DNA from: Parcubacteria group bacterium | GTDB taxonomy: Bacteria > Patescibacteriota > Minisyncoccia > Phycocordibacterales > Phycocordibacteraceae | NCBI GenBank assembly: GCA_028286605.1 | Contig: JAQBRE010000003.1 | Location: 17,275 to 81,274, forward strand | Direction: 5' to 3' | DNA: 64,000 nt | Shown here: positions 5,094-33,900 of the stretch, in pieces | How the letters are laid out: the number at the start of each line of letters is the position of its first letter | How positions within the stretch are numbered: position 1 is the first letter of the stretch | Notes under the pieces: generated by a model | The model's input: only the letters and a program-made list of their open reading frames with translations | Databases searched by the model: none | What the model was told of the DNA's origin: nothing | Made by a program: the position numbers and the translations under genes

Positions 5094-5177
5094 CTGATGT
5101 ACTCCGATTGACCCGCTGAAACCATACCATAATCGTTGCGTTGTGCATGGGGGAGAGTGATACCGTAGAATGGAGGA

Positions 5178-20212: not shown

Positions 20213-20893
20213 ATGAAGGTATTCTCATTTCTTACTGAAGTTTTCGTTCGCGCCTTGCCAGCGCTGGTTGGAATAACGCTCCTTGCCGGCGTGGCCTATG
20301 TGAACGATCAGCAGACGTGGCGCATGATGGCGAATGAACCGCAGGAATGGATAGCGCAAAACGCAGCTAACACCGCTGCACAGCAAACGTCCGCACCGGT
20401 CGCCCCTATAGATACAATCACCGGTACGAATACGCCCGTACTAAACCCCACGCCAGAAGATGCTGCACCACTTCCTGCTACGGCACAAGGATCGCAAACG
20501 CATATAGCGATAGAACGCGATGAAGCGCCGTACACGATTCTGTACAACGCGAAGCGTGATGCGGTTTCCGGAACCGGCTATCTGCACGGTGTTCTTCCGC
20601 AGCTTCCGAGCGGCATCTTCGATGCCGCGGCCAAAGCCGGCGTGAATCGTCTCACCTGGCAGCCTGAACCCGGCGTGCGCCAGGCAATCGTCGTCCTTCC
20701 GATTACAGGCGGACCCCTCACTGGCGGCTTCGTCGTTGCGGGCCGCTCGCTCGCCTATACCGAATGGCAGGAGTCGCAACTCACCCAACGCTGGATTCTT
20801 GGCTGGCTCGCTTCTGCAATCGGAATCCTAATCATCTCAGCGATTATCGCCTTCCTCCATCTTCGCCGCCGCACCGCACCAACACCTGTTTAA
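20213..20893 (+). CDS. hypothetical membrane protein (N- and C-terminal TM helices), divergent from ECF sigma gene
   Basis: 226 aa; no recognisable domain. Confidence 0.45.
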   Translation: MKVFSFLTEVFVRALPALVGITLLAGVAYVNDQQTWRMMANEPQEWIAQNAANTAAQQTSAPVAPIDTITGTNTPVLNPTPEDAAPLPATAQGSQTHIAIERDEAPYTILYNAKRDAVSGTGYLHGVLPQLPSGIFDAAAKAGVNRLTWQPEPGVRQAIVVLPITGGPLTGGFVVAGRSLAYTEWQESQLTQRWILGWLASAIGILIISAIIAFLHLRRRTAPTPV

Positions 20894-20896: not shown

Positions 20897-20926
20897 AGAA
20901 TTCCAACATCGTCCCAGACTGCCAGC
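20897..20926 (+). repeat. copy a of conserved 28-30 nt intergenic motif AAGGTTCCAACATCGTCCCAGACTGCCAGC
   Basis: Exact match to consensus over 26 nt. Confidence 0.8.
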
Positions 20927-21050
20927 ATAATTTCTAGAGAGGCATTTTTAGGTGCTTTTGCGAGTACCTCGTAGGGTAAATAATACGCTTCATGAAGACG
21001 AAGGCAACACAAATATGGAACCGCCCGACTTTCGCCGGGCGGCCATGGAG

Positions 21051-21308
21051 TCAGGCGGCATTCGCCTGACGAAGAGCAGAGATGTCGACAACTCGGTAGA
21101 GGGAGATGGCTTCTGCCTTGATCCTTCCACTTGGATCGCGAGCTGAGCGTTCGCGCATGATGCCGATGACTTTTACCAGCGCGGCGTCATCAGATTCAGC
21201 TTCGAAATACTCGACTGACTTTCGGGTAGTCATGCCAGCACGCCGACTTCCTTCGCCGTCATCTCCACCAAAATGCTCGGGCTCATTAAACTCAAACCTA
21301 TAGCTCAT
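21051..21308 (-). CDS. hypothetical small acidic protein (85 aa) flanked by motif copies a and b
   Basis: MSYRFEFNEPEHFGGDDGEG...; strong SD AAGGAAGG about 8 nt upstream of ATG 21308. Confidence 0.45.
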   Translation of the reverse strand: MSYRFEFNEPEHFGGDDGEGSRRAGMTTRKSVEYFEAESDDAALVKVIGIMRERSARDPSGRIKAEAISLYRVVDISALRQANAA

Positions 21309-21395
21309 AGAGCTTTCCTTCCTTTTGTTTACTGGAGAATCCAGTGCCGAGAACCAATCCCATGTAATCAAATCACTTTCAAGGCAGAAGTGCAA

Positions 21396-21426
21396 AAGGT
21401 TACAACATCGTCCCAGACTAGTCAGC
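21396..21426 (+). repeat. copy b of conserved intergenic motif (variant AAGGTTACAACATCGTCCCAGACTAGTCAGC)
   Basis: 27/31 identity to consensus. Confidence 0.75.
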
Positions 21427-21479
21427 TAGTCAAATTTATTTTACGTAGTATAGTCTCTCTGGTTAGAAGGAGAGACACC

Positions 21480-21617
21480 ATGTGCGATGGTTGCAATGAT
21501 CCACGGTGCCAGTTTGGTTGTCTGATCGCGGAGAGCATCAGGGCGAGGGAAGAAAACCCTCAAACTGAAAAGCCGCGCCAGGAATCCTGGTTCCATCGGC
21601 TGTTTCGGTTCTCCTAG
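21480..21617 (+). CDS. Cys-rich small protein (45 aa, CxxC-x4-C-x3-C)
   Basis: MCDGCNDPRCQFGCLIAESIRAREENPQTEKPRQESWFHRLFRFS; strong SD GAAGGAGAG 5 nt upstream; TAGTCA-N16-TATAGT promoter-like element at 21427-21454 just after motif b. Confidence 0.45.
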   Translation: MCDGCNDPRCQFGCLIAESIRAREENPQTEKPRQESWFHRLFRFS

Positions 21618-21675
21618 CGAGAACCTTAAACTTTGAGTCGCCTAGTACCGAAAGGGAACGGCGGCTTTTGTTATG

Positions 21676-21704
21676 TAGGTTCCAACATGGTCCCAGACTG
21701 CCAG
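21676..21704 (+). repeat. copy c of conserved intergenic motif (AGGTTCCAACATGGTCCCAGACTGCCAGC)
   Basis: One substitution relative to consensus. Confidence 0.8.
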
Positions 21705-21729
21705 CACATATAAAAAGTATGGGTCCCGC

Positions 21730-22050
21730 CTATACAGAGCGGGACCCAGTTCCGAGCAGGTGGATTAGACCTGCTTCGCGCACGAATTCAAAAACATCTT
21801 CTTCGGATAAGAATTCGTCGCTCTGGACGTATATCCAGTCGTCATAATCTTCATCGGTAGGGGTGATGAGGATTTGGTGGATGCCGATGCGAGGAGATTC
21901 ATCGAACCCCTCCCCAGCCAGCTGCTTATCAACCACCTTCATGTAATCGATGCCGCCGTGCGTAGCGAACTCGCGTACCTCTTTGAGGGCTGCAACCCGA
22001 GAGAGTCCGCGTTCCTGATCCCTATCGGGATAGAGTATTTCGTATCTCAT
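21730..22050 (-). CDS. hypothetical small acidic protein (106 aa) flanked by motif copies c and d
   Basis: AGGAGG SD 6 nt upstream of ATG 22050; C-terminal segment resembles that of 32824-33225 (acidic stretch then E.GLI..HL). Confidence 0.5.
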   Translation of the reverse strand: MRYEILYPDRDQERGLSRVAALKEVREFATHGGIDYMKVVDKQLAGEGFDESPRIGIHQILITPTDEDYDDWIYVQSDEFLSEEDVFEFVREAGLIHLLGTGSRSV

Positions 22051-22114
22051 ACGAGCCTCCTAAGAACACTCAGTATAACTATACCACCTATTCTAATAAG
22101 AACAAGTCCTCACG

Positions 22115-22140
22115 AAGGTTCCAACATCGTCCCAGTCAGT
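22115..22140 (+). repeat. copy d of conserved intergenic motif (AAGGTTCCAACATCGTCCCAG-TCAGT, 3' part deleted)
   Basis: First 21 nt identical to consensus. Confidence 0.75.
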
Positions 22141-22202
22141 AACTATTTATATAAAAGAAAAGCGACCCCCGAAGGAGTCGCTCTGTAGTCGCACAAGCGC
22201 GA

Positions 22203-22628
22203 CTAGGTGGTGCCGATGAAGATGGTCGGCTTGTGGGCAATGCGTGCTGCGGCCAGGAGCATGTCGAGGGCATTGCTGCTTATGCCGTTGCAGCACTTCA
22301 AGAGCTCGATAGTCCTGAGATCGGAAAGCTGGGGAAGCAGGTCAGTCAGTTCACTGGAACCGACCTCACCGAACATCCATGCCACCGTGACGCCGAGTGC
22401 GTCAGCGATGTGACTGAGTCGAGAAGCAGAGATGCGATTCGCACCGCTTTCATACTTCTGGATTTGCTGGAACGTGATGCCTACCTTTTCCGCCAAGGTC
22501 TGCTGGCTCATGTTGAGCTCTTTGCGCCTGACGCGCATACGAGCGCCAACCTGAAGGTCGATCAGATCGGCTGTCTTGGGATTTGCGGAAGAGGGCATTG
22601 TGCTGCCGTCGGCCATTTGTAACCTCAA
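22203..22628 (-). CDS. XRE-family (Cro/C1-type) helix-turn-helix transcriptional regulator
   Basis: MSQQTLAEKVGITFQQIQKYESGANRISASRLSHIADALG is a canonical HTH_XRE; true start may be an internal Met (MADGS...). Confidence 0.8.
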   Translation of the reverse strand: MRLQMADGSTMPSSANPKTADLIDLQVGARMRVRRKELNMSQQTLAEKVGITFQQIQKYESGANRISASRLSHIADALGVTVAWMFGEVGSSELTDLLPQLSDLRTIELLKCCNGISSNALDMLLAAARIAHKPTIFIGTT

Positions 22629-22719
22629 TGTTCTGTGAATACAGTAGAGACTGGGGACCCAAACCTCTAAATGTATTATATTCTATAATACGGAAAAGTC
22701 AATGTCATCCTATCGCATC

Positions 22720-24666
22720 TTACATACTGCGGATCATGTCCTTCTCGATATCTTCGAAGGTGCCGCCGACCTTCTTGCCTGGGTTGAAGATGTTTTCAGG
22801 ATCGAATATACGCTTCGTTTCTGCGAAAAGGCTCACCATGTCCTGGCCGAACATCTGGGTGAGGTACGGAGTGCGGATGATGCCGTCATTATGTTCGCCG
22901 GTGGTGGAGCCGCCGTATTTAAGAACGATGTCGTAGACCTTCGGCGCGAGTTCGAGGATTATCTTTCTCGATTCAGGCTTAGAAACATCCATGAGCGGAA
23001 TGATATGGAAGTTACCGTTGCCGATGTGTCCGGCAATCGTATATATAAGGTCATATTTGCCAAGGAGCGCATTGAGTTCCGGAAGGAACTTCGGATAGGT
23101 GTCGGGCGGCACGACGAAGTCGTCGATGAACGGGGAAGCGTAGAGTCCCTTCAGGTTCTTGCGGAGAAGCGCAAAGCTTTCGCGACGCACGATCCAATAT
23201 TTCTCTGCAGCCTGTTCGTTCTTCGCGATACGTGTGGGCAGTTTCATCGAGGCGAGGGAAGCGCGCGCATCCTCTGCACGCTTCAGCGCGCGCTCTGCAG
23301 TTTCGTCCGAAAATTCAGCCATCAGGATAAGTTTCGGTATGCCGCCGGTGATTGCCATACCCACTTCAGGAATGAACGAAAGACCGAGGCGTGTGGCGCG
23401 AACAAGACCCATCTGCGAAAGCATTTGCGGCATGAACTGTACGGCAAGCTTCAGTGTGTGGTCGTCATAGGACTCGAATGATTCCGGATTGAACGGCAAG
23501 ACTTTCTTCACGACCTGTGGCAACGGATCGAGGCTCGTAAGGAAGACGATGAGCATGGCTCGATGCTTTTGCGGCTTCACTAACGAAAGCTTCGCTTTCG
23601 TGACGAGCGCGAGCGTCCCCTGCGCGCCACAAATAACTTTCGCCAAGTTGAACGTGCCAGTCTTCGGGTCATGAATATCCCACAATGCGTAGCCTGCAGA
23701 GTTCTTCGTTACATGCGGTCGTGCTTTCTCGATGGTCTTCGCGTTCGTGCTTATGAGTGCGCTCATGCGCTTGTATATAGAACCTTCAAGCGTCGGAAGC
23801 TGCTGCTTCGCAGCGAGTTCGCGTGCATTGAGCGCTTTGAATGTTGTCTGCGTACCATCTGAAAGCACGACATCGACCTCCTCAAGATACCTTGCCGTCT
23901 TGCCGTATTCGAGTGTGCGTTCACCGCCGGAATTATTGTTCACGATACCGCCCATCGCGCAGATTTCGCGCGAAGCAGGGTACGAGGGAAGTATGAAATC
24001 CTGCTTCAGCGTTTCCTTCTCGAAATCACGATAGAACACGCCTGGTTCAGTAACGGCATATCCGTGATCGCCTTCCGTTCCGACGGCGATCACTTTGTTC
24101 ATGTATTTGGTGAATACTGCGACGATAGAATCGGTGAGCGGTCCGCCGCTCATGTCGGTACCTGCCGAACGCGCGGTAACGGAAACATTCATGCCGTGCG
24201 CACGTGCGCCATTCGCTGCCTTTACGAGCTCGCTAACATCGTTCGCATCCTTTGGATAAACCACGAGCTGCGGCATCTTCGTGAAGAGGCTCGTGTCGCG
24301 CGAATACTTCGTGCGTTCTGCACTGCTTTCCTCAACGTCACCGGTTATGTGCGGCTGAATCATCTTGTAGAGCGGTGTGTGCTGTATCGAAACAGCAACC
24401 GGTACTGGCGCAGCGCTGATGCGTGCACGATTTACCTGCGGTCGCACCGGCACTTCGCGTGGTGCCTTCCGTTCTTTCACTGGCTTCATCTTCGGCTCCT
24501 TGATTGCCTTCGGAGCTTTCTGCACTCTCTCTTTCTTCTCGCGCTGTTTCCAGAATCGTTCTCCCGGATGATGCGTTCGCCATACCTCACGTACGGCACC
24601 ATATATGAATGCGAGCAGCACAACGAAACAGAGAATGATAATGAGATAGGCAAGGAGCGCGTACAT
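22720..24666 (-). CDS. FAD-binding oxidoreductase (GlcD/D-lactate dehydrogenase-like) with N-terminal TM helix and Lys-rich linker
   Basis: FAD_binding_4 segment VVYPKDANDVSELVKAANGARAHGMNVSVTARSAGTDMSGG and FAD-oxidase C-terminal domain. Confidence 0.75.
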   Translation of the reverse strand: MYALLAYLIIILCFVVLLAFIYGAVREVWRTHHPGERFWKQREKKERVQKAPKAIKEPKMKPVKERKAPREVPVRPQVNRARISAAPVPVAVSIQHTPLYKMIQPHITGDVEESSAERTKYSRDTSLFTKMPQLVVYPKDANDVSELVKAANGARAHGMNVSVTARSAGTDMSGGPLTDSIVAVFTKYMNKVIAVGTEGDHGYAVTEPGVFYRDFEKETLKQDFILPSYPASREICAMGGIVNNNSGGERTLEYGKTARYLEEVDVVLSDGTQTTFKALNARELAAKQQLPTLEGSIYKRMSALISTNAKTIEKARPHVTKNSAGYALWDIHDPKTGTFNLAKVICGAQGTLALVTKAKLSLVKPQKHRAMLIVFLTSLDPLPQVVKKVLPFNPESFESYDDHTLKLAVQFMPQMLSQMGLVRATRLGLSFIPEVGMAITGGIPKLILMAEFSDETAERALKRAEDARASLASMKLPTRIAKNEQAAEKYWIVRRESFALLRKNLKGLYASPFIDDFVVPPDTYPKFLPELNALLGKYDLIYTIAGHIGNGNFHIIPLMDVSKPESRKIILELAPKVYDIVLKYGGSTTGEHNDGIIRTPYLTQMFGQDMVSLFAETKRIFDPENIFNPGKKVGGTFEDIEKDMIRSM

Positions 24667-24680
24667 ATATATAGAATAAC

Positions 24681-25430
24681 TTATCCGGCGAGAAGCTCGC
24701 CGATAACGCGCATCGTGTCTTCAGGATCTTTCACCTGTTGCGTGCGGATGCCGGTCTCCTTCACCACCTCATCGTTGCCGCCCGGATACAGCGCGTCGCC
24801 GATGTACATCGTGTCTGCGATTATGTACGAACGGTATTCGCACAACTTGCGAATGCCGTATGCCTTGTTAATTCCTTTCAACGTAACGTCGATCGAAGTT
24901 GAACCGCCGGTTTTTACGTCGTATTCGGGAAGCATCGGCACGAGCGCGTCGTGCAGCGTGCGCTTCTTAGAACCGTCTGGATCCCACGCTTCTTTCTCTG
25001 CGATAGGTGCTTCTTGGCCAAGTGCAGAGAGCGTTACTTCTGCGCCGCGGAACTCGATGCGATCGCCATATGAATGTGATGCGAGGTCAACGATACCCGT
25101 TTCGCGCATCGCGGTCTCAAGGGTCGTGCATATGCTTTGTGCCTGCGCGTCGGTAAGGCGTTCCTCATATACGGCCTGCCATCGTCCTTCAAGGAATGCG
25201 TAGAGCGCCGCGCCGCTCGTGGGAAGAATGAATAGATGATCGAGCACCGTACCTTCGGGGAGCTGGTCTGCGACTTGTTCCTTAAGCTGTGAGAATTTTC
25301 CGCCAGAGATTATCGCCACGTTCGTACGTGCAAGAAGCTTCGAAAGAAGCTGCGCCATTTCGGGCGTGAGCGGCTGCTTGCTCGCAGCGAGCGTCTTATC
25401 GAGATCGAAGAAAATGAGAGAAGGAAGCAT
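24681..25430 (-). CDS. HAD-superfamily hydrolase, subfamily IIB (phosphomannomutase/Cof-like)
   Basis: Motif I FFDLDKTL, motif II ISGG, C-terminal GDALYPGGND. Confidence 0.7.
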   Translation of the reverse strand: MLPSLIFFDLDKTLAASKQPLTPEMAQLLSKLLARTNVAIISGGKFSQLKEQVADQLPEGTVLDHLFILPTSGAALYAFLEGRWQAVYEERLTDAQAQSICTTLETAMRETGIVDLASHSYGDRIEFRGAEVTLSALGQEAPIAEKEAWDPDGSKKRTLHDALVPMLPEYDVKTGGSTSIDVTLKGINKAYGIRKLCEYRSYIIADTMYIGDALYPGGNDEVVKETGIRTQQVKDPEDTMRVIGELLAG

Positions 25431-25431
25431 A

Positions 25432-27363
25432 TTAGTTCTTTACGAGGAGACGGCTCATAAGCTTTGAAACGGAGAACGTAGCGACACCCAGCTTACTGTC
25501 TGCACCGCCGTAATACACGAAGAGCGTATCATCACGGCGCACGATGCCGCAGGTGAATACGACATCGCCGATCTGCCCGTGCTTCTCCCAATCATCGAGC
25601 GGCTCGAGTATCGGCGCAACCATGCGCGAAATGACCCGTTCGGCAGCGTCATCAAGTAATGCGGCTCCAAGCCTGTACGTCTTCTTGTCTGGTGCGATAG
25701 CGTGATAAATGAATAGCCAGCCTTCAGGAACTTTCAGCGGCGCTGAACCGGCACCTATCTTATGGCCGTCCCACATGCCCGGGCGCGGACCCATAAGATC
25801 GAAGGCGCGGTCTATGGTGTGAATCTTGTCGAGGGAATCGAACATCTCGATACAGATGTTCGGATCAAGGCGATGCATCACCGCGACCTTTCCGTTGATG
25901 CGTTCGGGGAAGATGCATACGTCTTTGTCTGCAATTCCTTCAGGGGTGATGAGCTTCGGCGTGGACCAGTTCTTGAATTTCTTCGCGACGAAATCCTGTA
26001 TAGGAATACTGCTTATCGCGCCGCGTACCGATACACGCCCATCGTAGGCGGTGTAGCAAACGGTGAGCGTGTCATCAAGCAGCGTAAGGCGTGGATCTTC
26101 GCAGCCGGAGTTTCCGTCGGGCGCGCCTCCTTTCGCTTCGAATGATTCGCGCGGCGTGTACGCAGGCGTGTCGAGGCGCTCGGTAACGTGAATGCCATCT
26201 TCAAGGCGCGCGTATCCCATAACCGAGGTCGAGTCCGCACCCATGGCGCGGTACAGCAGATGCACTGAACCGCTGTGATCGATTGCTGCGGCATTGAATA
26301 CCGCGCGTGATTCCCATGCGTGTTCAGGAATAGGAGAGAGTATCGGATTACCTTCAGCGCGCGTACCGAAATTACGGCGACTGGTTTCGCTCATCGATTC
26401 TATAAGCGCAGAAAGAGAAAGCGTTGCCGTTGCGCAGGAAGTGTCAGCAGCGCCGTAATATACGTGCAGCGTGTCGCCATCGAGGCTCGCGCCGGAAGGG
26501 AATACGACGTTGCCGACGATGCCGTATCGTTCGTAGGATTCTTCCGGCACCATGAATGGATATTCCGTCTTGCCGATAACCTTGCGTGGATCATTCGCGT
26601 CAAGCAACAATGCTTCGACGCCAAAGATACGACGATGCTCGTCGTAATAATCCTGTATGTGCGAATACACGAGCAGCCACCCTTCCTTCACGCGTAGCGG
26701 CGTAGCCGCTACTTCCATATGTTCCGTATCGTTACGGCGAATATCCGGAAGTGCATGTTCAGGAAGATGCGCATGCCATTCCTCCCAGAACGAAGGATTC
26801 CAGAAGTCTTCGATATTCTTCGAGCGCGCGATGCCGATGGTGGAGGTGGGGTAATCCGCAGTCCAGTCGGTATGCGCCGTGACCATAAGAACGGCGTCGC
26901 CATCGATGCGTTCAGGGAATAGCGTGGCAGCTTTGGCATTGAAGGGTGTGACGATATGCTTCTCGGTGAGCTCGTTCGGAAGCGTACCAATAGCGACTGC
27001 GCATTTAATGTTGTCCGGTCCGAACGGATATCCGCCGAGCGCGGTATAGAACACGTACCACTTTCCTTCGAAGAAGGTCGCGCGCGGGTCTTCGCATCCG
27101 TACTTCTCCCAGTCTTCGGTCGGCTCGATTACTTGCGCGCGCTCCTCGAAATCTAAGTCGCCGTGCCCGGCAGAATAGCCGATCGTAGAGAACCCATGAT
27201 GCGGCGTCCGCAGGACGTCCGGTTCTCCCATCGCTCTATAAAAAAGATGTGTCGTGCCATCCTTGTGCACGACGGTGGGATTAAACGCACCGATCGCTTC
27301 ATACGCGCGGTTACGCGATGGCACAATTATAGGGTTGTTTTTTGAGCGGGTGACGATGAACAT
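25432..27363 (-). CDS. tandem GH130 (DUF377) glycoside hydrolase/phosphorylase-like protein
   Basis: Two repeats of the GH130 signature (NPIIVP...AFNPTVV...HLFYRAMG and GNPILSPIPEHAWESRAVFNAAAI...HLLYRAMG). Confidence 0.7.
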   Translation of the reverse strand: MFIVTRSKNNPIIVPSRNRAYEAIGAFNPTVVHKDGTTHLFYRAMGEPDVLRTPHHGFSTIGYSAGHGDLDFEERAQVIEPTEDWEKYGCEDPRATFFEGKWYVFYTALGGYPFGPDNIKCAVAIGTLPNELTEKHIVTPFNAKAATLFPERIDGDAVLMVTAHTDWTADYPTSTIGIARSKNIEDFWNPSFWEEWHAHLPEHALPDIRRNDTEHMEVAATPLRVKEGWLLVYSHIQDYYDEHRRIFGVEALLLDANDPRKVIGKTEYPFMVPEESYERYGIVGNVVFPSGASLDGDTLHVYYGAADTSCATATLSLSALIESMSETSRRNFGTRAEGNPILSPIPEHAWESRAVFNAAAIDHSGSVHLLYRAMGADSTSVMGYARLEDGIHVTERLDTPAYTPRESFEAKGGAPDGNSGCEDPRLTLLDDTLTVCYTAYDGRVSVRGAISSIPIQDFVAKKFKNWSTPKLITPEGIADKDVCIFPERINGKVAVMHRLDPNICIEMFDSLDKIHTIDRAFDLMGPRPGMWDGHKIGAGSAPLKVPEGWLFIYHAIAPDKKTYRLGAALLDDAAERVISRMVAPILEPLDDWEKHGQIGDVVFTCGIVRRDDTLFVYYGGADSKLGVATFSVSKLMSRLLVKN

Positions 27364-27369
27364 AAATAA

Positions 27370-28512
27370 CTATGCGAGCGCCATTTGCGGCGTACCGTGC
27401 GTCATGAGCGTATCAAGAAAACTGCCGATCGGTGCGCTTGCTGAACAGACGACATTATCGCCGCCGCCATAATACACGCGGAGCGTGTCGTCTTTTATCG
27501 TTGCGCCGCAGCCGTATACGATTCCTGGCTTTCCTTCATTCTCATACGTAGCGTCAGGTACGAGCACTGGCAACGGCGCGCGCGCGATTATCTTCGTCGG
27601 ATCAAGCAAATCAAGAAGCGCTGCACCCATCTTATATTTGTGAGTCTCATCGTCATTCGCGTGATAGAGGAAGAGCCAGCCGAATGCTGTCTTAATCGGT
27701 GGCGGGCCGATGCTGCGCATGCGCTTGTGCCACGCGATCGTGCGATCAGGCATCGCATGAGGATTCGGGCTATCGATATGAGGAGAATCTGCGCCGATGC
27801 GCATCGGGTCGTTCATGTATTCGATGCGCACGCGATTCTCGTCGTCCGTATGCAGATTATGCATAAGCGCGAACTGTCCGTTCACTTTTTCAGGGAAGAG
27901 CACCCAATTCTTATGACGCTCGCCGGCAGGTGAAAGGAATGATGGCTTGCTCCAGTTCCAGCGATGGTTTATGAGGTCGTCGACATCAAGGGTGATTGCC
28001 GCGACGCGCATATTGTCCCAGCCGTCGAACATATTGAACGTCAGGTACAATTTATTATCTATGATGACGGCGCGCGGGTCTTCCGTGCCGCCCCAGCTAC
28101 CACCAGAAGGATACTGTACCGGGTCATAGCGATAATGAACGCCATCACGCAAGCCATCGGCAGCGTATACCGGAAAGGGAAGACGCTCATCAAAATTAAC
28201 GCCGTCCTTAGAGGAGGCATAGCCGATACGCGATACGCCGTCCGCACCTACGGCACGGTAGAACATATGCGTCCTTCCTCCAGCTTCAACGATCGCGGGA
28301 TTCAGCACTGATTCTTTTTCCCAGTGATAAGAACCGGTTCTAAGGATAGGATTCATCGCATTGCGCACGAGCTCCAGCGCTTCCTGCACCACTGCCTGTA
28401 TGCGCGGCTGTGAGAAGAACGCATGCAGCATCTGCCACAGTCCATAGAAAAAGAGGCCGGTGACGGAGAACGCTATGAATACTGCGACGAAAAAGATTAT
28501 GAGATCACTCAT
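27370..28512 (-). CDS. GH130 (DUF377) family glycosidase-like protein with N-terminal TM anchor
   Basis: WEKESVLNPAIVEAGGRTHMFYRAVGADGVSRIGYASSKDG and C-terminal LRVYYGGGD match GH130. Confidence 0.7.
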   Translation of the reverse strand: MSDLIIFFVAVFIAFSVTGLFFYGLWQMLHAFFSQPRIQAVVQEALELVRNAMNPILRTGSYHWEKESVLNPAIVEAGGRTHMFYRAVGADGVSRIGYASSKDGVNFDERLPFPVYAADGLRDGVHYRYDPVQYPSGGSWGGTEDPRAVIIDNKLYLTFNMFDGWDNMRVAAITLDVDDLINHRWNWSKPSFLSPAGERHKNWVLFPEKVNGQFALMHNLHTDDENRVRIEYMNDPMRIGADSPHIDSPNPHAMPDRTIAWHKRMRSIGPPPIKTAFGWLFLYHANDDETHKYKMGAALLDLLDPTKIIARAPLPVLVPDATYENEGKPGIVYGCGATIKDDTLRVYYGGGDNVVCSASAPIGSFLDTLMTHGTPQMALA

Positions 28513-28876
28513 GTGCGGTATCTGCTACGCGTCCGTAATCGTCTTCAAGCCGTTCGATATCATTCTCATCGAATTCACCGAGTGCGATTTCCAAAACAGT
28601 TATTCCTTCAGGACCACCAGTTAAACGATGAGTCGCGCCAATAGGAATTTCAACTTCGCTATCTATAGTCATCGGATACTCGACACCATCGACCTCAGCC
28701 ATGCCGCTTCCTTTGATAGTCTTCCAGAATTCGGAACGCTTCGAATGCTTCTGCAGTGAAAAGCGCTGGCCTGCAGCAACATTCAGGAATTTCAGTTCTG
28801 AAGGCTCGTTCTCGGTGAAACGGTCGAATGAGCCCCACGGACGATCTTCGTGGCAGCGATTGGAGAGAAGGGACAT
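28505..28876 (-). CDS. cupin-domain protein (mannose-6-phosphate isomerase type II C-terminal-like)
   Basis: RPWGSF...KFLNVAAGQRFSLQKHSKRSEFW...G matches cupin_2 / MPI-II. Confidence 0.6.
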   Translation of the reverse strand: MSLLSNRCHEDRPWGSFDRFTENEPSELKFLNVAAGQRFSLQKHSKRSEFWKTIKGSGMAEVDGVEYPMTIDSEVEIPIGATHRLTGGPEGITVLEIALGEFDENDIERLEDDYGRVADTAHE

Positions 28877-28946
28877 ATACCTATAATACATTGCATGAAG
28901 CGTTTATGAGCAGTGGAAAACGTGCATAACAACATAAATCTGAGGT

Positions 28947-29441
28947 ATGGTTAGCGCCATGAGACTCGCAACCCTGGCAATCATCGTGCAGGACGGAAAA
29001 GTGCTGCTTGGCGAGAAGAAGAAAGGTGAAATCGGCACAGGAACCCTGAATGGACCCGGTGGCAAGCTTGATCCCGGAGAGACGCTAACAGAATGTCTTA
29101 TCCGCGAGGTTGATGAAGAGCTTGAAATAAAACTGGATGCAGATCAACTGAAGAAAGTTGCCATCATAACGTTCTTCGCCGGAGGTGAGCCTGACTTCGG
29201 TGTACATGTGTACCGTACTCAGTATTTCGAGGGCGAATTGAAAGAGACCGCAGACATGATACCGAACTGGTACGATATCCAGGATCTCCCATTCGATCGA
29301 ATGCTCGGCTCAGATCATATGTGGTTCAAACAAGCTGTGGATGGAGAATCCTTTTGCGCAAACGTGTATTACAAGGAGCGGGCAAGCGGGTTCGAACGTA
29401 TTGATTTCCTTCCGTTCGTAGATACCGAGGTTGTAGCGTAG
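28947..29441 (+). CDS. NUDIX hydrolase
   Basis: Nudix box GPGGKLDPGETLTECLIREVDEELEI. Confidence 0.85.
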   Translation: MVSAMRLATLAIIVQDGKVLLGEKKKGEIGTGTLNGPGGKLDPGETLTECLIREVDEELEIKLDADQLKKVAIITFFAGGEPDFGVHVYRTQYFEGELKETADMIPNWYDIQDLPFDRMLGSDHMWFKQAVDGESFCANVYYKERASGFERIDFLPFVDTEVVA

Positions 29442-29463
29442 GGCCCGTCCGGAGGACGGGCCC
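29441..29463. terminator. bidirectional hairpin gggcccgtcc-gga-ggacgggccc between convergent genes
   Basis: Perfect 10-bp GC-rich stem. Confidence 0.6.
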
Positions 29464-29470
29464 TTACTAG

Positions 29471-29884
29471 TTACTCGTGATGCATCCCCGCAACCCTGAA
29501 ATTCACGTGCAAATTGAAGAGATAATTCACGATGCCGATTACTCCCGCTACCAGCACGCGTGCCAACAGGTAATAAAGGTGCGCGAAGCTAACTAACAAC
29601 GCAACGAGCCCGGTTGTCGCGAGCGCTCCCAGAAGCGCAACGATGATGAAGTACGCATAGCCATGATGAATCGGCCGCTTCGTTCCATAGAACACGAAAC
29701 GACGGCTTATGAAATAGTTTATTGAGACGGCAATAAGGAACGTCGCAGGCGTGGAAAAATAGTAGGGAATACCGAGAATGCTTGTAGCGATATATAGGAG
29801 GCACAGGTCAAATCCGAGCGTACTGGCTCCTACGAGAGCATAGCGAAGAAAACGGCGGAGCGAGGGCGAACGAGCTAAGTCCAT
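29471..29884 (-). CDS. GtrA-family polysaccharide-synthesis membrane protein
   Basis: RFLRYALVGASTLGFDLCLLY...NYFISRRFVF matches GtrA-like fold (4 TM). Confidence 0.6.
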   Translation of the reverse strand: MDLARSPSLRRFLRYALVGASTLGFDLCLLYIATSILGIPYYFSTPATFLIAVSINYFISRRFVFYGTKRPIHHGYAYFIIVALLGALATTGLVALLVSFAHLYYLLARVLVAGVIGIVNYLFNLHVNFRVAGMHHE

Positions 29885-29896
29885 GGCCGTAGTCTA

Positions 29897-29925
29897 GCGC
29901 ATGGGGATAACGCTTGACTTTTCTA
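29897..29925 (+). promoter_or_regulatory. sigma70-like promoter TTGACT-N17-TATATT
   Basis: Consensus-like hexamers with 17-nt spacer; followed about 110 nt later by terminator 30040-30065. Confidence 0.4.
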
Positions 29926-30039
29926 AAAGCGTCTGATATATTCAAAGGAAGTTGAGGTGAGTGATGTGCGGCTTATGTTCGACCTTCGAGTTGAACCCTT
30001 TTTACAACTAAGCCGCGCATCAGTCTTCTTAACTCCACT

Positions 30040-30065
30040 AAACGCGCCACAGGGCGCGTTTTTGC
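30040..30065 (+). terminator. rho-independent terminator aacgcgcc-acag-ggcgcgtt + ttttt
   Basis: 8-bp perfect stem, T5 tail. Confidence 0.65.
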
Positions 30066-30081
30066 GTATTTCAGGCCTCTT

Positions 30082-30110
30082 TTGTGCAGAAATACGCAAC
30101 GCGTTATACT
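30082..30110 (+). promoter_or_regulatory. sigma70-like promoter TTGTGC-N17-TATACT for ABC transporter operon
   Basis: -10 TATACT 9 nt upstream of ATG 30120 (near-leaderless); overlaps inverted repeat tgcgtatttc...gaaatacgca (possible operator). Confidence 0.4.
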
Positions 30111-30119
30111 GCCTAAATC

Positions 30120-31070
30120 ATGGCTCCTGACCCCACCGTTCCTGCTCTCGAAATCGTCAATCTAAAGAAGAAATACGCAGGAACGAAGAAGAATCCTGGT
30201 ACCGATGCCTTGAAAGGCGTCTCACTCACCGTTCCCCAAGGCGAATTCTTCGCCTTCCTCGGACCGAACGGAGCAGGAAAAACCTCACTCATTTCTATCG
30301 TTGCCGGCCTTGCCGTTAAGAGCAGCGGGGAAGTTCGCGTACACGGCATCTCTATAGACGAGCATGCGGACCATGCAAAGGCGTTCATTGGCCTCGTTCC
30401 GCAGGAAATGAATTTCAATATCTTCGAGAAAGTTATCAACATCGTGCTTGATCAGGCTGGGTACTACGGAATCTCACGTGCAGAAGCGATGCCGCAGGCT
30501 GAAAAGGTCCTCAAGGATCTTTCACTCTGGGAAAAGCGCAATGAGGCAGCGCAGGCACTTTCGGGCGGCATGAAGCGACGCCTGCTCATCGCTCGCGCCC
30601 TCGTGCACAAGCCGCGCGTGCTGCTTCTTGATGAACCGACCGCCGGCGTAGACGTTGAGCTGCGTCGCGGCATGTGGGATTTCCTTCGTGAACTCAACGA
30701 ATCAGGCACGACAATCATTCTCACGACGCACTATCTTGAAGAAGCAGAACAGCTCTGCCGTCGCGTAGCGATAATCAATCAGGGCGAAATCATTAAAGAG
30801 GGAACCGTAAAGGAATTGCTCACGAGCCTCAGTTCGGTAACGCTGCTCGTGGATACGAAGGAGCCAGTATTGCTCTCAAATATGGAACTGCTGCGCGGCT
30901 ATCCGATAACGAAGATCGATGAGACCACGCTTGAAGTGAAGCTGGAACATAATCAGCCGGCGAACGATATTTTCCGTAAGCTTTCCTCTATCGGCATCAA
31001 CATAATGAATGTTCGAAATTCAGGAAGCCGCCTTGAGGAAGTGTTCGTCAGCTTGGTAGAAAAGAAATAA
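30120..31070 (+). CDS. ABC transporter ATP-binding protein (ABC-2/DrrA-type)
   Basis: Walker A GPNGAGKTS, signature LSGGMKRRL, Walker B LLLDEPTAGVD. Confidence 0.9.
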   Translation: MAPDPTVPALEIVNLKKKYAGTKKNPGTDALKGVSLTVPQGEFFAFLGPNGAGKTSLISIVAGLAVKSSGEVRVHGISIDEHADHAKAFIGLVPQEMNFNIFEKVINIVLDQAGYYGISRAEAMPQAEKVLKDLSLWEKRNEAAQALSGGMKRRLLIARALVHKPRVLLLDEPTAGVDVELRRGMWDFLRELNESGTTIILTTHYLEEAEQLCRRVAIINQGEIIKEGTVKELLTSLSSVTLLVDTKEPVLLSNMELLRGYPITKIDETTLEVKLEHNQPANDIFRKLSSIGINIMNVRNSGSRLEEVFVSLVEKK

Positions 31071-31074
31071 TCTT

Positions 31075-31848
31075 ATGGACCGTCACCCAATCACAACCGG
31101 CTATTACACGATGGTGCGCAAGGAATTCATCCGCATCGTGCGTATCTGGGCGCAGACCCTTCTTCCGCCGATCATCACCACGGCGCTGTATTTCGCTATC
31201 TTCGGAACATTCATCGGTTCGCAGGTCGCGAAGATCCACGGCGTCTCGTATATAGAATTCATCGTGCCAGGCTTGGTTATGATGGCGATTATCACCAGTT
31301 CGTACACGAACACCGTCTCGACCTTCTATTTCGCGAAGTGGCAGCACACGATAGACGAACTCTTCGCATCGCCGATGCCGGACTGGGTGGTTATCGCCGG
31401 TTTCGTTACGGGCGGCGTGATGCGCGGCGTTCTTGTGGGCATCCTCGTCATCGGCGTCTCGCTTTTCTTCACGCATCTCCTTATTTACAACATGTTTGTG
31501 CTTATTGCAGCGGCAGTGCTTACATCTGTGCTGTTTTCTTGCGCAGGATTGGTTAATGCTATTTTCGCCAAGACGTTCGACGCGATCAACATCGTTACGA
31601 CGTTCGTGCTCACGCCGCTTACGTATCTCGGCGGCGTCTTCTATTCGATAAACCAGCTTCCGCCAATCTTCCGTACGCTTTCGCTCGCCAACCCCATTCT
31701 CTATATGGTGAATGCATTTCGCTACGGATTCCTTGGCATAAGCGACGTATCGCTCGGCCTGAGCTTCGGCGTCATAATCGGCCTGATCATAATCCTTCTT
31801 GTCGCATCGATACTGTTATTCAAGCGCGGTACCAAACTCAAGAACTAA
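31075..31848 (+). CDS. ABC-2 type transporter permease
   Basis: 6 predicted TM helices; ABC2_membrane-like; 4-nt gap after ATPase gene. Confidence 0.8.
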   Translation: MDRHPITTGYYTMVRKEFIRIVRIWAQTLLPPIITTALYFAIFGTFIGSQVAKIHGVSYIEFIVPGLVMMAIITSSYTNTVSTFYFAKWQHTIDELFASPMPDWVVIAGFVTGGVMRGVLVGILVIGVSLFFTHLLIYNMFVLIAAAVLTSVLFSCAGLVNAIFAKTFDAINIVTTFVLTPLTYLGGVFYSINQLPPIFRTLSLANPILYMVNAFRYGFLGISDVSLGLSFGVIIGLIIILLVASILLFKRGTKLKN

Positions 31849-31866
31849 GCGCGGTATACTGAGCGT

Positions 31867-32733
31867 ATGCTGACGTTCACACAAGCGATCATCCTAGGTC
31901 TTGTTCAGGGCTTCACGGAACTCTTTCCGATATCAAGCTTAGGTCATAGTGTGCTGCTTCCGATGCTGCTCGGATGGAAGCTCGATCAGAGCGCGCCATT
32001 CTTTGTGGTATTCCTCGTGGCGACGCATCTTGCAACCGCGCTCGTACTTATCGGATTCTATTTCCGCGACTGGATTCGCATCGCGCAGGGCTTCCTTCGC
32101 TCCCTTATCTATCGTCGTGTTCATGGCGACGTATATGCGAAGCTCGCGTGGCTGCTTATTGCCGCGACTATTCCTGCCGGGCTTCTTGGGTTCCTTTTTC
32201 AGAACAAGCTAAGTGCGCTCTTCGCTTCGCCGCATATCGTTGCCGTATTCCTGTTCGCGAACGGCCTTATGCTGCTCGTTATTGAACGTATGAAGAAGCG
32301 TCCTTCCACGTCACTGCAGACTGCAGGAGGGCTTGCGCTTGATACGAACATCTCGCGGCTCACCGGCTTCCAGGCATTGCGCGCCGGAACGATGCAGGCG
32401 CTTGCGCTGTTCCCGGGATTCTCGCGTACCGGCGCATCTATCGGCGGGGGATTGCTTTCAGGCCTTGATCACGCGAGCGCAGCTCGCTTCTCATTCCTTC
32501 TCGCGACACCGATCATTCTCGCTGCTGCGGTACTAAAACTTCCAGTCCTGTTTACCGCTACGCACAGCTACCCGACACAACAGATAGTTGCCGGCATGCT
32601 CGCTGCCGCATTCGCTGCGCTCGTTTCCGTACTCTTCCTTACGCGCTATTTCCGCACGCGCTCGCTTCTTCCATTCGCGTATTACTGCATGCTCGCTGGC
32701 GCGAGCTCGATCATATTCTTCTTGTTCTCTTAG
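31867..32733 (+). CDS. uppP: undecaprenyl-diphosphatase (BacA/UppP)
   Basis: ELFPISSLGHSVLL and RFSFLLATP motifs. Confidence 0.85.
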   Translation: MLTFTQAIILGLVQGFTELFPISSLGHSVLLPMLLGWKLDQSAPFFVVFLVATHLATALVLIGFYFRDWIRIAQGFLRSLIYRRVHGDVYAKLAWLLIAATIPAGLLGFLFQNKLSALFASPHIVAVFLFANGLMLLVIERMKKRPSTSLQTAGGLALDTNISRLTGFQALRAGTMQALALFPGFSRTGASIGGGLLSGLDHASAARFSFLLATPIILAAAVLKLPVLFTATHSYPTQQIVAGMLAAAFAALVSVLFLTRYFRTRSLLPFAYYCMLAGASSIIFFLFS

Positions 32734-32736
32734 TTC

Positions 32737-32754
32737 GGTTCCTGGTCTGCCAGC
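32737..32754 (+). repeat. copy f (degenerate/partial) of conserved intergenic motif: GGTTCC-TGGTCTGCCAGC
   Basis: Shares 5' GGTTCC and 3' CTGCCAGC plus identical 3' flank with copy d (TAACT-TTATATAAAAGAAAA). Confidence 0.5.
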
Positions 32755-32823
32755 TAACTTTATATAAAAGAAAACGCCCGCCTCAGAGAAGCTGGTGAGC
32801 GTTCTCCGAAGCGGACGTGTTTG

Positions 32824-33225
32824 TCAGGCCGGTTCTTGTAAGTGAACCGCGATGAGGCCCAGTTCATGATTGTCTTCGCCAGCATCTTCGAAGTCGAAGT
32901 CGCCGAGCACAGTGGCCATGACCTCTTGGATTCGAGCTGCGATTGTAGGGAACTGATTTTGATCCCCAAACACGACGATAAACGTAGGGCCCACCCAGAC
33001 ACGTTCAATACCTATCGTGTCATCGAGCCCTTTGTACAACTGAGGGATTTTCTCACCCTGTAGACGGAGATGCCTCAAGTAGCCGCGAAGGAACTTGCCG
33101 TCCCTGAATGAAGCAGTGACAACTTCCCAGACCATCGGAATTTTGTAGATAGGGTCAATGATCTGAAATACGAGGCGGATACCTCCTGTTCCTCGCGCCG
33201 TGCCGAATAGAACAAATGGCTTCAT
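32824..33225 (-). CDS. hypothetical small acidic protein (133 aa) flanked by motif copies f and e
   Basis: AAGGAGG SD 8 nt upstream of ATG 33225; C-terminal DFDFEDAGEDNHELGLIAVHL resembles C-terminus of 21730-22050. Confidence 0.55.
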   Translation of the reverse strand: MKPFVLFGTARGTGGIRLVFQIIDPIYKIPMVWEVVTASFRDGKFLRGYLRHLRLQGEKIPQLYKGLDDTIGIERVWVGPTFIVVFGDQNQFPTIAARIQEVMATVLGDFDFEDAGEDNHELGLIAVHLQEPA

Positions 33226-33271
33226 GATTGAGTCCTCCTTTCTCTGGACAGAACCCTAACACAGTTGCATA

Positions 33272-33303
33272 AAGGTTCCAACATCGTCTCCCAGACTGCC
33301 AGC
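33272..33303 (+). repeat. copy e of conserved intergenic motif (AAGGTTCCAACATCGTCTCCCAGACTGCCAGC)
   Basis: 2-nt insertion (TC) relative to consensus. Confidence 0.8.
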
Positions 33304-33322
33304 TGTTTGCTAGAATGAAGGT

Positions 33323-33856
33323 ATGAAAATCATTAGAATTATTCTGCTCATCCTGATTATTATCGGACTCGGCCTCCTTGCTACTCAAAGATATTGGGTA
33401 TCTCCTTTGGTGAACAAGATACTGTCGTATGAAAAAATGCCTGTTGTCGTATCACCTACGCCTGCGCCAACTCACCTACCTGCGCCAACCGGTACCGCAA
33501 CGGTTCCTGTATCGCACCCTCCCACACCTCCTGTAAATCAGGCCTCGAGCAGCGTGGCGATTACTGCAACAATTGGTCCGACATGTCCTGTCATGAAAGA
33601 TCCGCCAGACCCTGCATGTGCGGATAAGCCATATGAAACGACACTGGTACTTGCGAGTACCATAATCGGAAGGAATGGGGGAGTGCTGGTGAAAACGGAT
33701 GCGCAGGGTTATTTCTCTGAAAGCATCAGTCCAGGTATCTATACCATTCGCGCTCAATCAGATGCAGCGCTCCCGCGACTCACTCCTGTTACTTTTACCG
33801 TTGAGCCGAACAAGCAAACCAGCGTGCATCTTCAGTTCGATAGTGGCATACGGTAA
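33323..33856 (+). CDS. secreted/membrane-anchored protein with Pro-rich linker and carboxypeptidase-regulatory-like beta-sandwich domain
   Basis: Signal anchor MKIIRIILLILIIIGLGLLA; PTPAPTHLPAPTGT linker; TDAQGYFSESISPGIYTIRA resembles CarboxypepD_reg motif. Extended -10 TGCTAGAAT at 33304-33312. Confidence 0.5.
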   Translation: MKIIRIILLILIIIGLGLLATQRYWVSPLVNKILSYEKMPVVVSPTPAPTHLPAPTGTATVPVSHPPTPPVNQASSSVAITATIGPTCPVMKDPPDPACADKPYETTLVLASTIIGRNGGVLVKTDAQGYFSESISPGIYTIRAQSDAALPRLTPVTFTVEPNKQTSVHLQFDSGIR

Positions 33857-33863
33857 ATGAAAA

Positions 33864-33900
33864 GGCCCCGGGAATTCCGCTTTGCGGAATTCCCGGGGCC
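33864..33900. terminator. 17-bp perfect hairpin ggccccgggaattccgc-tttg-cggaattcccggggcc (bidirectional, convergent genes)
   Basis: A-run upstream gives a T-run for the minus-strand HK/RR operon. Confidence 0.7.

Follow-up and report, generated by a model that had tools for sequence, protein, structure and literature searches.

What is the short repeated motif that brackets small genes in a 64,000-nucleotide stretch of DNA (the window) from a Parcubacteria group bacterium (GCA_028286605.1, contig JAQBRE010000003.1, positions 17,275 to 81,274), and does it serve as an operator, a mobile repeat, or a recombination site? The initial annotation reported six same-strand copies and offered all three readings, namely an operator or promoter of a small regulon, an attachment site delimiting gene cassettes, or a MITE-like element. 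The repetition itself has been confirmed, although one of the six sites belongs to a different sequence class. Of the three readings, the analysis supports the attachment site. The motif lies at the junctions between small single-gene units in Patescibacteria, the arrays begin at a glutamine tRNA gene or a fragment of one in 55 of 79 assessable cases, and this points to an integron-like way of swapping genes for which no published description was found.

Repeat copies and genes in the window

All six sites exist on the + strand. Five of them, at 20897 (copy a), 21396 (b), 21676 (c), 22115 (d) and 33272 (e), are copies of GGTTCCAACATCGTCCCAGAC-NNN-CAGC, and none is expected by chance. The exact 30-mer given in the initial annotation occurs nowhere; copy a differs from it at 3 positions and copy c at 2. 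A 19-nt core, TTCCAACATCGTCCCAGAC, matches copies a, b, c and d with at most 1 mismatch, whereas shuffles give 0.01 expected matches. A profile built from relatives found copies a to e at E = 4e-12 to 1e-7, and nothing else in the 64 kb scored above 6 bits. Copies b and d diverge in the 3' third (ACTAGTCAGC and a shortened CCCAGTCAGTAAC, respectively), and copy e carries a 2-nt insertion (CGTC-TC-CCAG). The sixth site, f (32733-32754, +, GTTCGGTTCCTGGTCTGCCAGC), had been described as a degenerate copy. It is not a decayed copy but a 22-nt fragment of the 3' end of tRNA-Gln. Sequence outside the core is unrelated between copies, apart from the A-rich tracts that belong to terminators.

Array 1 consists of copies a to d and lies between a membrane-protein gene and an XRE gene. 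Copy a (20897-20926, +, AGAATTCCAACATCGTCCCAGACTGCCAGC, 41 bits) starts 4 nt after the stop codon of the + strand gene 20213-20893 and lies between convergent genes. It is followed by cassette 1 (20927-21395), which holds an 85-aa ORFan on the minus strand (21051-21308) with its own terminator (21019-21044). Copy b (21396-21426, +, AAGGTTACAACATCGTCCCAGACTAGTCAGC, 28 bits) lies between divergent genes and is followed by cassette 2 (21427-21675), a 45-aa Cys-rich ORF on the + strand (21480-21617) with a promoter-like TAGTCA-16-TATAGT, a Shine-Dalgarno sequence and a hairpin with a T-run before copy c. Copy c (21676-21705, +, TAGGTTCCAACATGGTCCCAGACTGCCAGC, 42 bits) lies between convergent genes. 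Cassette 3 (21706-22114) holds a 106-aa ORFan on the minus strand (21730-22050) with a terminator at 21720-21748; its only match among 5.8 billion proteins is itself. Copy d (22115-22143, +, AAGGTTCCAACATCGTCCCAGTCAGTAAC, 29 bits), with a shortened 3' part, is the last repeat of the array.

Array 2 begins at site f, which overlaps the TAG stop codon of uppP and represents an attI/attL-like first site. The tRNA search found no tRNA gene at this position. Cassette 4 (32755-33242) holds a 133-aa ORFan on the minus strand (32824-33225), with a hairpin and A-run next to f. A conserved 5' extension (33243-33271, GGACAGAACCCTAACACAGTTGCATAAAG) precedes copy e; read on the minus strand it is an extended -10 promoter and 5' leader for the cassette gene, and it is shared by about 20 minus-strand cassettes in other genomes. 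Copy e (33272-33303, +, AAGGTTCCAACATCGTCTCCCAGACTGCCAGC, 37 bits) is followed by a distal unit (33304-33900) encoding a 177-aa secreted-type protein on the + strand (33323-33856). This gene has TGC-TAGAAT 7 nt before the ATG, so it looks leaderless, and the unit ends in a strong hairpin (33864-33900). A homologue at another array-bearing locus (L023; loci are numbered with the prefix L) is a motif-bounded cassette. Each of these minus-strand genes has a rho-independent terminator between its stop codon and the motif on its left (21019-21044 and 21720-21748) and starts 47-88 nt from the motif on its right. Both arrays are secondary sites, because the window holds no tRNA-Gln gene.

Distribution and anatomy of the arrays

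The motif is not private to this genome. An exact-pattern scan of genome representatives returned more than 118 loci, about 94 of them from Patescibacteria, and a profile found about 290 copies. Another 84 copies that do not match the search pattern keep the same core. The DnaX proteins of the array-bearing genomes are only 35–88% identical. Many loci come from the same genomes. Within a locus the copies lie on one strand in all but one case, and motif orientation follows GC skew in 76 of 94 loci. Across 146 intervals the median spacing is 567 bp (289–1256 bp, 5th to 95th percentile), and one ORF, called by a crude longest-ORF rule, covers about 77% of each interval. The ORFs lie on either strand relative to the motif (86 plus and 60 minus), and 139 of them fall into 135 clusters, almost all singletons. 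Junctions of the types (-,+), (+,+), (-,-) and (+,-) were observed 18, 18, 17 and 10 times, whereas independence predicts 20, 16, 15 and 12. The motif marks junctions, not gene starts.

Homology between cassettes in different contexts ends at the motifs. Loci L002 and L106 align at 78.6% over 765 nt, and L009 and L110 at 88% over 633 nt; both alignments run from motif to motif, with flanks that do not align. Window positions 32747-33304 align with positions 3512-4076 of L158 at 81%, and the same cassette is present in L156 and L160. Those three copies lie at the dnaX hot spot or next to other genes, not at uppP. Two of the cassette pairs may lie in syntenic hot spots and show modular turnover rather than proven transposition, and no excised circle or within-population presence/absence polymorphism was observed. 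Content also varies at conserved loci. The interval from dnaX to the flavoprotein gene holds 1 to at least 7 motifs with unique genes, and the FAD-oxidase locus of the window differs from its 90–91% identical relatives.

Of 46 tRNA genes in the loci, 26 are tRNA-Gln, and all 26 have the array downstream on the same strand and no motif upstream. Of 34 tRNA-Gln 3' fragments, 33 lie within 1.6 kb upstream of the first canonical copy, and none lies on the opposite strand or downstream of the array. Sequence after the tRNA 3' end looks just like sequence after the motif. Full tRNA-Gln genes end in TCTCCCAGC (16 of 26) and never in TCTGCCAGC, whereas the fragments mostly end in TCTGCCAGC (16 of 35), which is the canonical 3' segment; L192 has GGTTCGATCCGCAGACTGCCAGCAA. 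The similarity of the motif to the tRNA-Gln 3' end is modest (about 22 of 26 positions with a 5-nt gap) and by score alone is not specific to tRNA-Gln. In addition, 24 of 79 assessable arrays, including array 1 of the window, have no detectable tRNA-type first site.

The motif has no secondary structure. Single-stranded DNA folds of the six window sites gave z-scores from +1.2 to -2.0, no hairpin spans the motif, and no inverted repeat was found. Only tRNAs were recovered from Rfam at gathering threshold, and none overlaps a motif copy. Clustering of 752 neighbouring ORFs gave only housekeeping families and no conserved regulator. Pfam analysis of 10 large array-associated ORFs found a Phage_integrase domain only in L019, the 1 of about 94 loci in which a tyrosine recombinase abuts an array. 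The first cassettes are only 312–2266 nt long, and no integrase homologue was detected in any locus with a tRNA-Gln gene.

Interpretation of the motif

The best reading, held with moderate confidence, is that the 30-nt motif is the att-type junction site of a gene-cassette system found across Patescibacteria (CPR), including Parcubacteria. An array begins at the 3' end of a tRNA-Gln gene, or at a 22-nt copy of that end placed elsewhere in the chromosome, and continues as alternating cassettes and motifs. Each cassette is one small gene, usually an ORFan, which carries its own promoter, and minus-strand genes carry their own terminator. It is inferred that a site-specific recombinase encoded elsewhere in the genome acts in trans to recombine a cassette-borne motif with the tRNA-Gln-type site or with another motif, which inserts, excises or swaps single cassettes. 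The recombinase, the crossover point and the direction of insertion are all inferred, and the site has no inverted-repeat arms of the kind that core sites of tyrosine or serine recombinases usually show. The crossover probably falls in or next to the shared 3' segment AG(A/T)C-YNCCAGC(AA).

An alternative, considered unlikely, is that no dedicated recombinase exists and that the motif serves as a short block of shared homology, possibly also as a DNA-uptake signal, so that naturally competent Patescibacteria exchange whatever lies between two copies by RecA-dependent recombination after transformation. The near absence of integrases beside the arrays, the end of cassette homology at the motifs and the near identity of the motif across distant genomes agree with this view, and competence genes have been reported as prevalent in Patescibacteria (PMC12455944). 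However, the first site of an array is the tRNA-Gln end, which shares only about 7–9 nt with the motif, too little for RecA, and the hybrid tRNA/canonical sites point to a precise crossover. Copies are also clustered, about 6 per 64 kb and only around cassettes (the 5 canonical copies of the window all lie in two cassette clusters), whereas uptake sequences are spread evenly, and the strict single-strand orientation is left unexplained.

The regulon reading, for which the initial annotation named the adjacent XRE regulator and ECF sigma factor as candidate regulators, is not supported and appears unlikely. In its favour, these two genes lie next to array 1, and in about 33 of 73 plus-strand cassettes an extended -10 lies 6–10 nt after the motif and the ATG follows 7 nt later, which places the motif in the -35 region. 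About 20 minus-strand cassettes have TTGGAA (the end of the motif), a 17–18 nt spacer and TGnTAGGTT. However, the motif strand is fixed while the gene strand is close to random, and the motif is present at convergent junctions as often as chance predicts, including three of the six window copies. Many cassettes have complete TTGACA-N17-TATAAT promoters at variable distances from the motif, and the tRNA-Gln 3' end replaces the motif upstream of the first cassette with the same -10 spacing. Flanking genes are almost all singletons, so no conserved regulon exists; the XRE is absent from the same locus in the closest relatives, L110 and L192; arrays elsewhere lie next to dnaX, dus and other housekeeping genes; and the motif has no dyad symmetry.

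Similarly unlikely is a role in polar transcription punctuation, in which the motif would act on the + strand as a factor-dependent terminator, insulator or RNA-processing signal at the 3' ends of co-oriented genes. In more than half of plus-strand cassettes the stop codon lies 1–12 nt before the motif with no hairpin between them, whereas minus-strand cassettes carry classical terminators. Sites a and f follow directly on the stop codons of housekeeping + genes, and the motif is C-rich and G-poor and co-oriented with most genes in 73 of 94 loci. However, 17 (-,-) and 18 (-,+) junctions have no + transcript to terminate, the motif lacks structure and an Rfam match at gathering threshold, only a small minority of + genes in the window have it, and neither the tRNA-Gln anchoring nor the modular homology is explained. 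Although the motif is a short, dispersed and conserved repeat, a remnant of a known mobile element or repeat family (MITE, IS end, REP/BIME or a CRISPR-like array) is very unlikely, since there are no inverted repeats or palindrome, no transposase or cas genes were found among the neighbours, the intervals are genes of 300–700 bp, and no CPR-type copy occurs in 2.9 million viral contigs; the initial annotation was right that this is neither a CRISPR array nor an attC-type palindrome.

Comparison with known systems

Integrons, including sedentary chromosomal integrons and CALINs, also consist of arrays of single small genes, mostly of unknown function, with one co-oriented recombination-site repeat at each junction and a distinct first site followed by a different repeated site. 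Cassette size (about 0.5 kb) is similar, and cassette content differs between related genomes at a fixed chromosomal locus. The motif is analogous to attI and attC sites, but the system is not an integron. No intI gene lies next to the array, and the site is an unstructured 30-mer conserved in sequence, not a 60–140 nt imperfect palindrome conserved in structure. In addition, cassettes lie on either strand and carry their own promoters and terminators, each genome has many small arrays, and the first site is part of a tRNA gene.

Elements that target tRNA genes, and the genomic islands they build, have been reported, for example, in Prochlorococcus as tycheposons (bioRxiv 10.1101/2020.12.28.424599). 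There too, variable regions lie 3' of a specific tRNA gene and are co-oriented with it, and the hosts have streamlined genomes that lack classical mobile elements. In tycheposons partial tRNA copies act as att repeats and successive integrations push older units further from the tRNA, as they may here. Tycheposons, however, are multi-kb elements that carry their own tyrosine or serine recombinase and replication genes, and their repeats are true partial tRNAs. Here the units are single genes without an integrase, the repeated site is a diverged, separately conserved 30-mer, and the same site is shared across very distant genomes. In modules that exploit Xer (IMEX elements and Acinetobacter pdif modules), small gene modules are bounded by about 28-nt recombination sites and are moved by a recombinase encoded elsewhere in the genome. 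The dif-like sites are 11-6-11 imperfect palindromes and pdif sites alternate in orientation, whereas the present motif has no dyad symmetry and, in all but one locus, is in direct orientation.

Occurrence of the motif within and beyond the window

The 30-mer given in the initial annotation as occurring in six copies does not occur exactly anywhere in the window. Copies a (20897) and c (21676) match it with 3 and 2 mismatches, respectively, and shuffled sequences gave none. The 19-nt core TTCCAACATCGTCCCAGAC matches copies a, b (21396), c and d (22115) with at most 1 mismatch, against 0.01 expected, and a repeat search listed these four copies as the top family in the window. A profile built from relatives recovered a, b, c, d and e (33272) at E = 4e-12 to 1e-7, and nothing else in the 64 kb scored above 6 bits. 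All copies lie on the + strand. Copy e has a 2-nt insertion, whereas b and d diverge in the 3' third. The gene layout agrees with the initial annotation, which described small minus-strand genes bracketed by copies of the motif. The minus-strand genes for the 85-, 106- and 133-aa proteins each have a rho-independent terminator next to the site on their left, and each starts 47–88 nt from the site on their right. Copy a starts 4 nt after the stop codon of a + strand gene (20213-20893), and copy f, the site at the left of the 133-aa gene, overlaps the stop codon of uppP. The gene at 20213-20893 encodes a 226-aa protein with no Pfam or NCBIfam match, which was read as a membrane protein from its sequence and could be an anti-sigma factor. 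It is transcribed divergently from an ECF-type sigma factor gene (19602-20162, minus strand; Sigma70_r2 and r4 domains), and array 1 (copies a to d) abuts its stop codon. Elsewhere in the window, a 34-nt segment recurs at 25497, 26442 and 27456, at about 1-kb spacing and 76–79% identity, inside the large minus-strand ORFs 25432-27363 and 27370-28512, which suggests internal or paralogous duplication in that operon.

The motif is also found widely among Patescibacteria. Of the loci (8-kb pieces chosen by an exact pattern and denoted here by L and a number), about 94 are Patescibacteria MAGs as judged from their labels, which include Parcubacteria/Paceibacterota, Nomura-, Kaiser-, Wolfe- and Berkelbacteria and Saccharibacteria. 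Many of these loci hold 2–7 copies. The remaining loci are probably chance hits, and most of them fall in one Rhodobacterales prophage gene. The 23-nt string AAGGTTCCAACATCGTCCCAGAC occurs inside one conserved coding gene of Rhodobacterales and Azospirillum genomes (L005, L016, L024, L032 and others, and L119-L152) and in 33 IMG/VR viral contigs. In the one locus checked (L123, 5205-6461, minus strand), this gene is a prophage-type C-5 cytosine DNA methyltransferase. The match is probably due to chance multiplied by conservation of the gene, although four extra flanking bases also match. The flanks of the motif were not part of the search pattern and are conserved too, with the consensus AARG-TTCCAACATCGTCCCAGAC-NNN-CAGCAA. 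A profile found about 290 copies, and 84 copies that fail the exact pattern keep the same core with 1–3 substitutions, so the conservation is not an artefact of how the loci were chosen. The DnaX proteins of 12 array-bearing genomes are 35–88% identical, with a median of 61%, and this intergenic 30-mer is therefore better conserved than a replication protein. The window comes from a Parcubacteria group bacterium MAG (locus tags JWM39_), and the closest locus among those collected is that of Parcubacteria C7867-007 (L110), at 70–74% nucleotide identity across the FAD-oxidase operon.

Anatomy and modularity of the arrays

Within a locus every copy lies on one strand, with the single exception of L118 (LFCQ01000002.1, about 67–71.7 kb), where the motif lies on the minus strand at 2212-2964 and on the plus strand at 7721. 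This switch spans genes for PBP1, RuvC and YebC, with no origin marker, and may be a replichore boundary or an inversion. Motif orientation agrees with GC skew in 76 of 94 loci and with the majority coding strand in 73 of 94, although the loci are not all independent and many come from the same MAGs. The 146 intervals between motifs have a median length of 567 bp, and one ORF, as called by a longest-ORF heuristic, covers about 77% of each interval. The ORF lies on the motif strand in 86 intervals and on the opposite strand in 60, and the 139 ORFs form 135 clusters. The motif sits at junctions of all four types in the proportions expected if it ignored gene orientation, with observed counts of 18, 18, 17 and 10 (the last being convergent junctions) against 20, 16, 15 and 12 expected. 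Genes next to the motif are almost all singletons.

Plus-strand cassettes mostly end with their stop codon 1–12 nt before TTCC (TAG|GTTCC, TAA|AGGTTCC), whereas minus-strand cassettes place a hairpin terminator directly after CAGCAA. About 33 of 73 plus-strand cassettes have TGnTAnnnT 6–10 nt after the motif and the ATG 7 nt further on, so they look leaderless. This arrangement, without a Shine-Dalgarno sequence, is seen in the window at 33311-33325 and in many other loci. Other cassettes have full TTGACA-N17-TATAAT promoters at variable distances. About 20 minus-strand cassettes, including the 133-aa gene in the window, share a conserved promoter and leader block, GTTGGAACCTTTMTGCAA..TGnTAGGTTCTGTCYAGA, and minus-strand cassettes of this class do carry GGAG-type Shine-Dalgarno sequences. 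The corresponding conserved 30-nt block (CTGGACAGAACCTAnCAnAnnTTGCAnAAAGG; window 33243-33271, L110 7130-7160 and about 20 other loci) adjoins the motif upstream of many unrelated minus-strand cassette genes. Read on the minus strand it is TTGGAA, 17–18 nt, TGnTAGGTT and then TCTGTCYAGA, with the spacer and the start region conserved across unrelated cassettes, and GAACCY/RGGTTC shows some compensatory-looking changes. This 5' extension was also considered as a longer tRNA-Gln remnant, but its alignment score to the tRNA body equals that of shuffles, and it reads as a minus-strand extended -10 promoter and leader.

The window's cassette proteins have no Pfam, NCBIfam or PADLOC match, and the 106-aa protein matches only itself among 5.8 billion proteins. 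ORFs associated with arrays in other genomes (L028 7093-7917, L064 6055-6885, L093 3944-5284 and L091 6582-7496) include a reverse transcriptase, a LAGLIDADG endonuclease, an AAA/nSTAND3 ATPase and a 5-hmdU DNA kinase domain protein, which hints that defence or mobile functions ride in these arrays.

Homologous cassettes have been found in different surroundings. L002 5442-6201 and L106 5743-4981 align at 78.6% over 765 nt, and L009 2900-3527 and L110 7108-7740 align at 88% over 633 nt. Both alignments run exactly from motif to motif, and the flanks do not align. The window's own cassette (f, the 133-aa gene and e) behaves the same way. Window 32747-33304 aligns with L158 3512-4076 at 81%, with L156 at 82.7% and with L160 at 72%. 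In the window the cassette follows uppP, in L156 and L158 it lies inside the array near dnaX, and in L160 it lies next to an Exo_endo_phos gene and the CCA-adding enzyme gene. The right-hand site is canonical in three of the four copies and decayed in L156. The left-hand site is canonical in L156 and L158 but tRNA-like in the window and L160, and after ...CCAGC the window and L158 share cassette-specific sequence (TAACTT).

Several conserved loci hold variable content. The interval SerRS, FtsQ-like, Dus, DnaX, M10 peptidase ... HI0933-like flavoprotein holds 1 to at least 7 motifs with unique genes in 14 loci. Most FAD-oxidase relatives have no motif after that gene. L192, which is 90% identical in FAD oxidase, has three copies directly after the stop codon, with different genes between them, whereas L191, which is 91% identical, has an XRE-like gene and no motif, and L110 has two copies, different genes and no XRE. 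In the window, the XRE/HTH_3 gene (22203-22628) has a near-consensus promoter (TTGACT-16-TATAAT at 22702-22675) and its own terminator (22159-22184), and its best NCBIfam similarities are RstR and DicA-type phage repressors. It is absent from the same locus in L110 and L192, so it may itself be an acquired unit. Exact-protein look-ups for near-identical strains, in which presence and absence of cassettes could be compared, returned either nothing or contigs of about 2 kb or less, and no direct evidence of mobility, such as excised circles or within-species polymorphism, was obtained.

Association with tRNA-Gln

Copy f and its counterpart in L160 align without gaps to each other (GTTCGGTTCCTGGTCTGCCAGC and GTTCGATTCCTAGTCTGCCATC) and also to the T-arm and acceptor 3' strand of tRNA-Gln. 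Among 46 tRNA genes in the motif-selected loci, 26 are tRNA-Gln. In all 26, the array lies downstream on the same strand, with the first canonical copy 312–2266 nt away, and no motif lies upstream of any of them. The sequence that follows the tRNA 3' end is the same kind of sequence that follows the motif, namely a -10 with a leaderless ATG, or TTGACA, or the terminator of a convergent gene. In L004 (about 6285-6593), L055 (about 7040-7200) and L077 (about 3800-3984), sequence just downstream of the annotated tRNA-Gln gene looks like a second tRNA-Gln copy, or part of one, at the head of the array. A profile of the tRNA-Gln 3' end found 34 further fragments that are not tRNA genes by ARAGORN, and the subset compared with Rfam gave no tRNA match there either. 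Of these fragments, 33 lie within 1.6 kb upstream of the first canonical copy on the same strand, one lies inside an array, and none lies anywhere else. Of 79 arrays whose start could be assessed, 26 start at a full tRNA-Gln gene and 29 at a fragment, whereas for 24, including array 1 of the window, nothing of the kind was detected.

The best alignment of motif to tRNA end is AGGTTCCAACATCGTCCCAGACTGCCAGCAA over AGGTTCGA-----GTCCTAGTCCGCCAGCAA. By score alone this is not specific to tRNA-Gln, and the case rests on position. Full tRNA-Gln genes end in TCTCCCAGC (16 of 26) and never in TCTGCCAGC. Fragments mostly end in TCTGCCAGC (16 of 35), which is the canonical 3' segment (ACTGCCAGC in 61 canonical copies). 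L192 carries a clear hybrid, GGTTCGATCCGCAGACTGCCAGCAA. These hybrids are what reciprocal site-specific exchange near AG(A/T)C-YNCCAGC would leave behind.

Interpretation and comparison with known systems

The best-supported reading is an att-type junction site of a cassette system anchored at tRNA-Gln, in which the recombinase, the exact crossover point and the direction of insertion are all inferred. No recombinase was found beside an array in about 94 loci except in L019, where the stop codon of a Phage_integrase-family (Xer-like) gene (4198-5142, minus strand) overlaps the 3' end of the last motif of a small array (tRNA-Gln fragment at 3477, motifs at 3774 and 4159). Full-text literature searches, including one for the motif string itself, found no description, and a paper on horizontal gene transfer in Patescibacteria does not mention tRNA, integrase or repeats. 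The system is therefore treated here as undescribed, with the caveat that the literature searched was incomplete.

Among the other readings, a replication-polar element (Ter, KOPS or Chi-like) is consistent with the agreement between orientation and GC skew, but the clustering, the gene-sized spacing and the tRNA anchoring fit an att site better. The anatomy of the arrays and the sequence that follows the tRNA 3' end argue against the promoter or operator reading, and the neighbouring XRE and ECF sigma genes, which the initial annotation had put forward as candidate cognate regulators, are not linked to the motif. Readings as sigma-54, ECF-promoter and IHF-like sites were rejected by eye because they do not fit the consensus spacings. 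The motif has no Rfam family match at gathering threshold, where only tRNAs were found, and single-stranded DNA folds were no better than shuffles, which excludes attC-like, REP-like, terminator-like and structured-RNA readings. A phage or plasmid origin was rejected because all 35 viral-contig hits lie in the one Rhodobacterales prophage gene and none is CPR-type.

Patescibacteria make up a large share of bacterial diversity. They have genomes of about 1 Mb and few recognised mobile elements, so how they gain and lose genes is poorly understood. It is possible, although this remains tentative, that they carry a previously unrecognised class of gene-cassette platform, a functional analogue of the integron that arose independently. 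In such a platform the 3' end of tRNA-Gln, and copies of it seeded around the chromosome, would serve as the resident insertion site, an unstructured, sequence-conserved 30-mer would serve as the cassette-borne site, and an unidentified enzyme acting in trans would move single self-expressed genes between arrays and between very distant members of the radiation. This would be a main route of gene flux in these reduced genomes. A conserved, easily searchable 30-mer that marks every junction of their variable single-gene arrays would offer a direct handle for cataloguing their accessory gene pool, which is mostly ORFans, a concrete target for finding the recombinase, and a natural landing pad for genetic engineering of these hard-to-manipulate bacteria. 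It would also offer an independent example of integron-like organisation, which bears on the question of how gene cassettes originate.

As read here, the system works like an integron, in that a distinct resident first site is followed by cassette-borne repeats, all co-oriented, with single-gene cassettes that turn over at fixed loci. However, it fails the defining tests for membership of the integron family, since there is no adjacent intI and no folded attC, and the genes lie on either strand with their own promoters. It also resembles tRNA-targeted island building, as in tycheposons (10.1101/2020.12.28.424599), but differs in that the units are single genes without integrases and the repeat is a diverged, separately conserved sequence.
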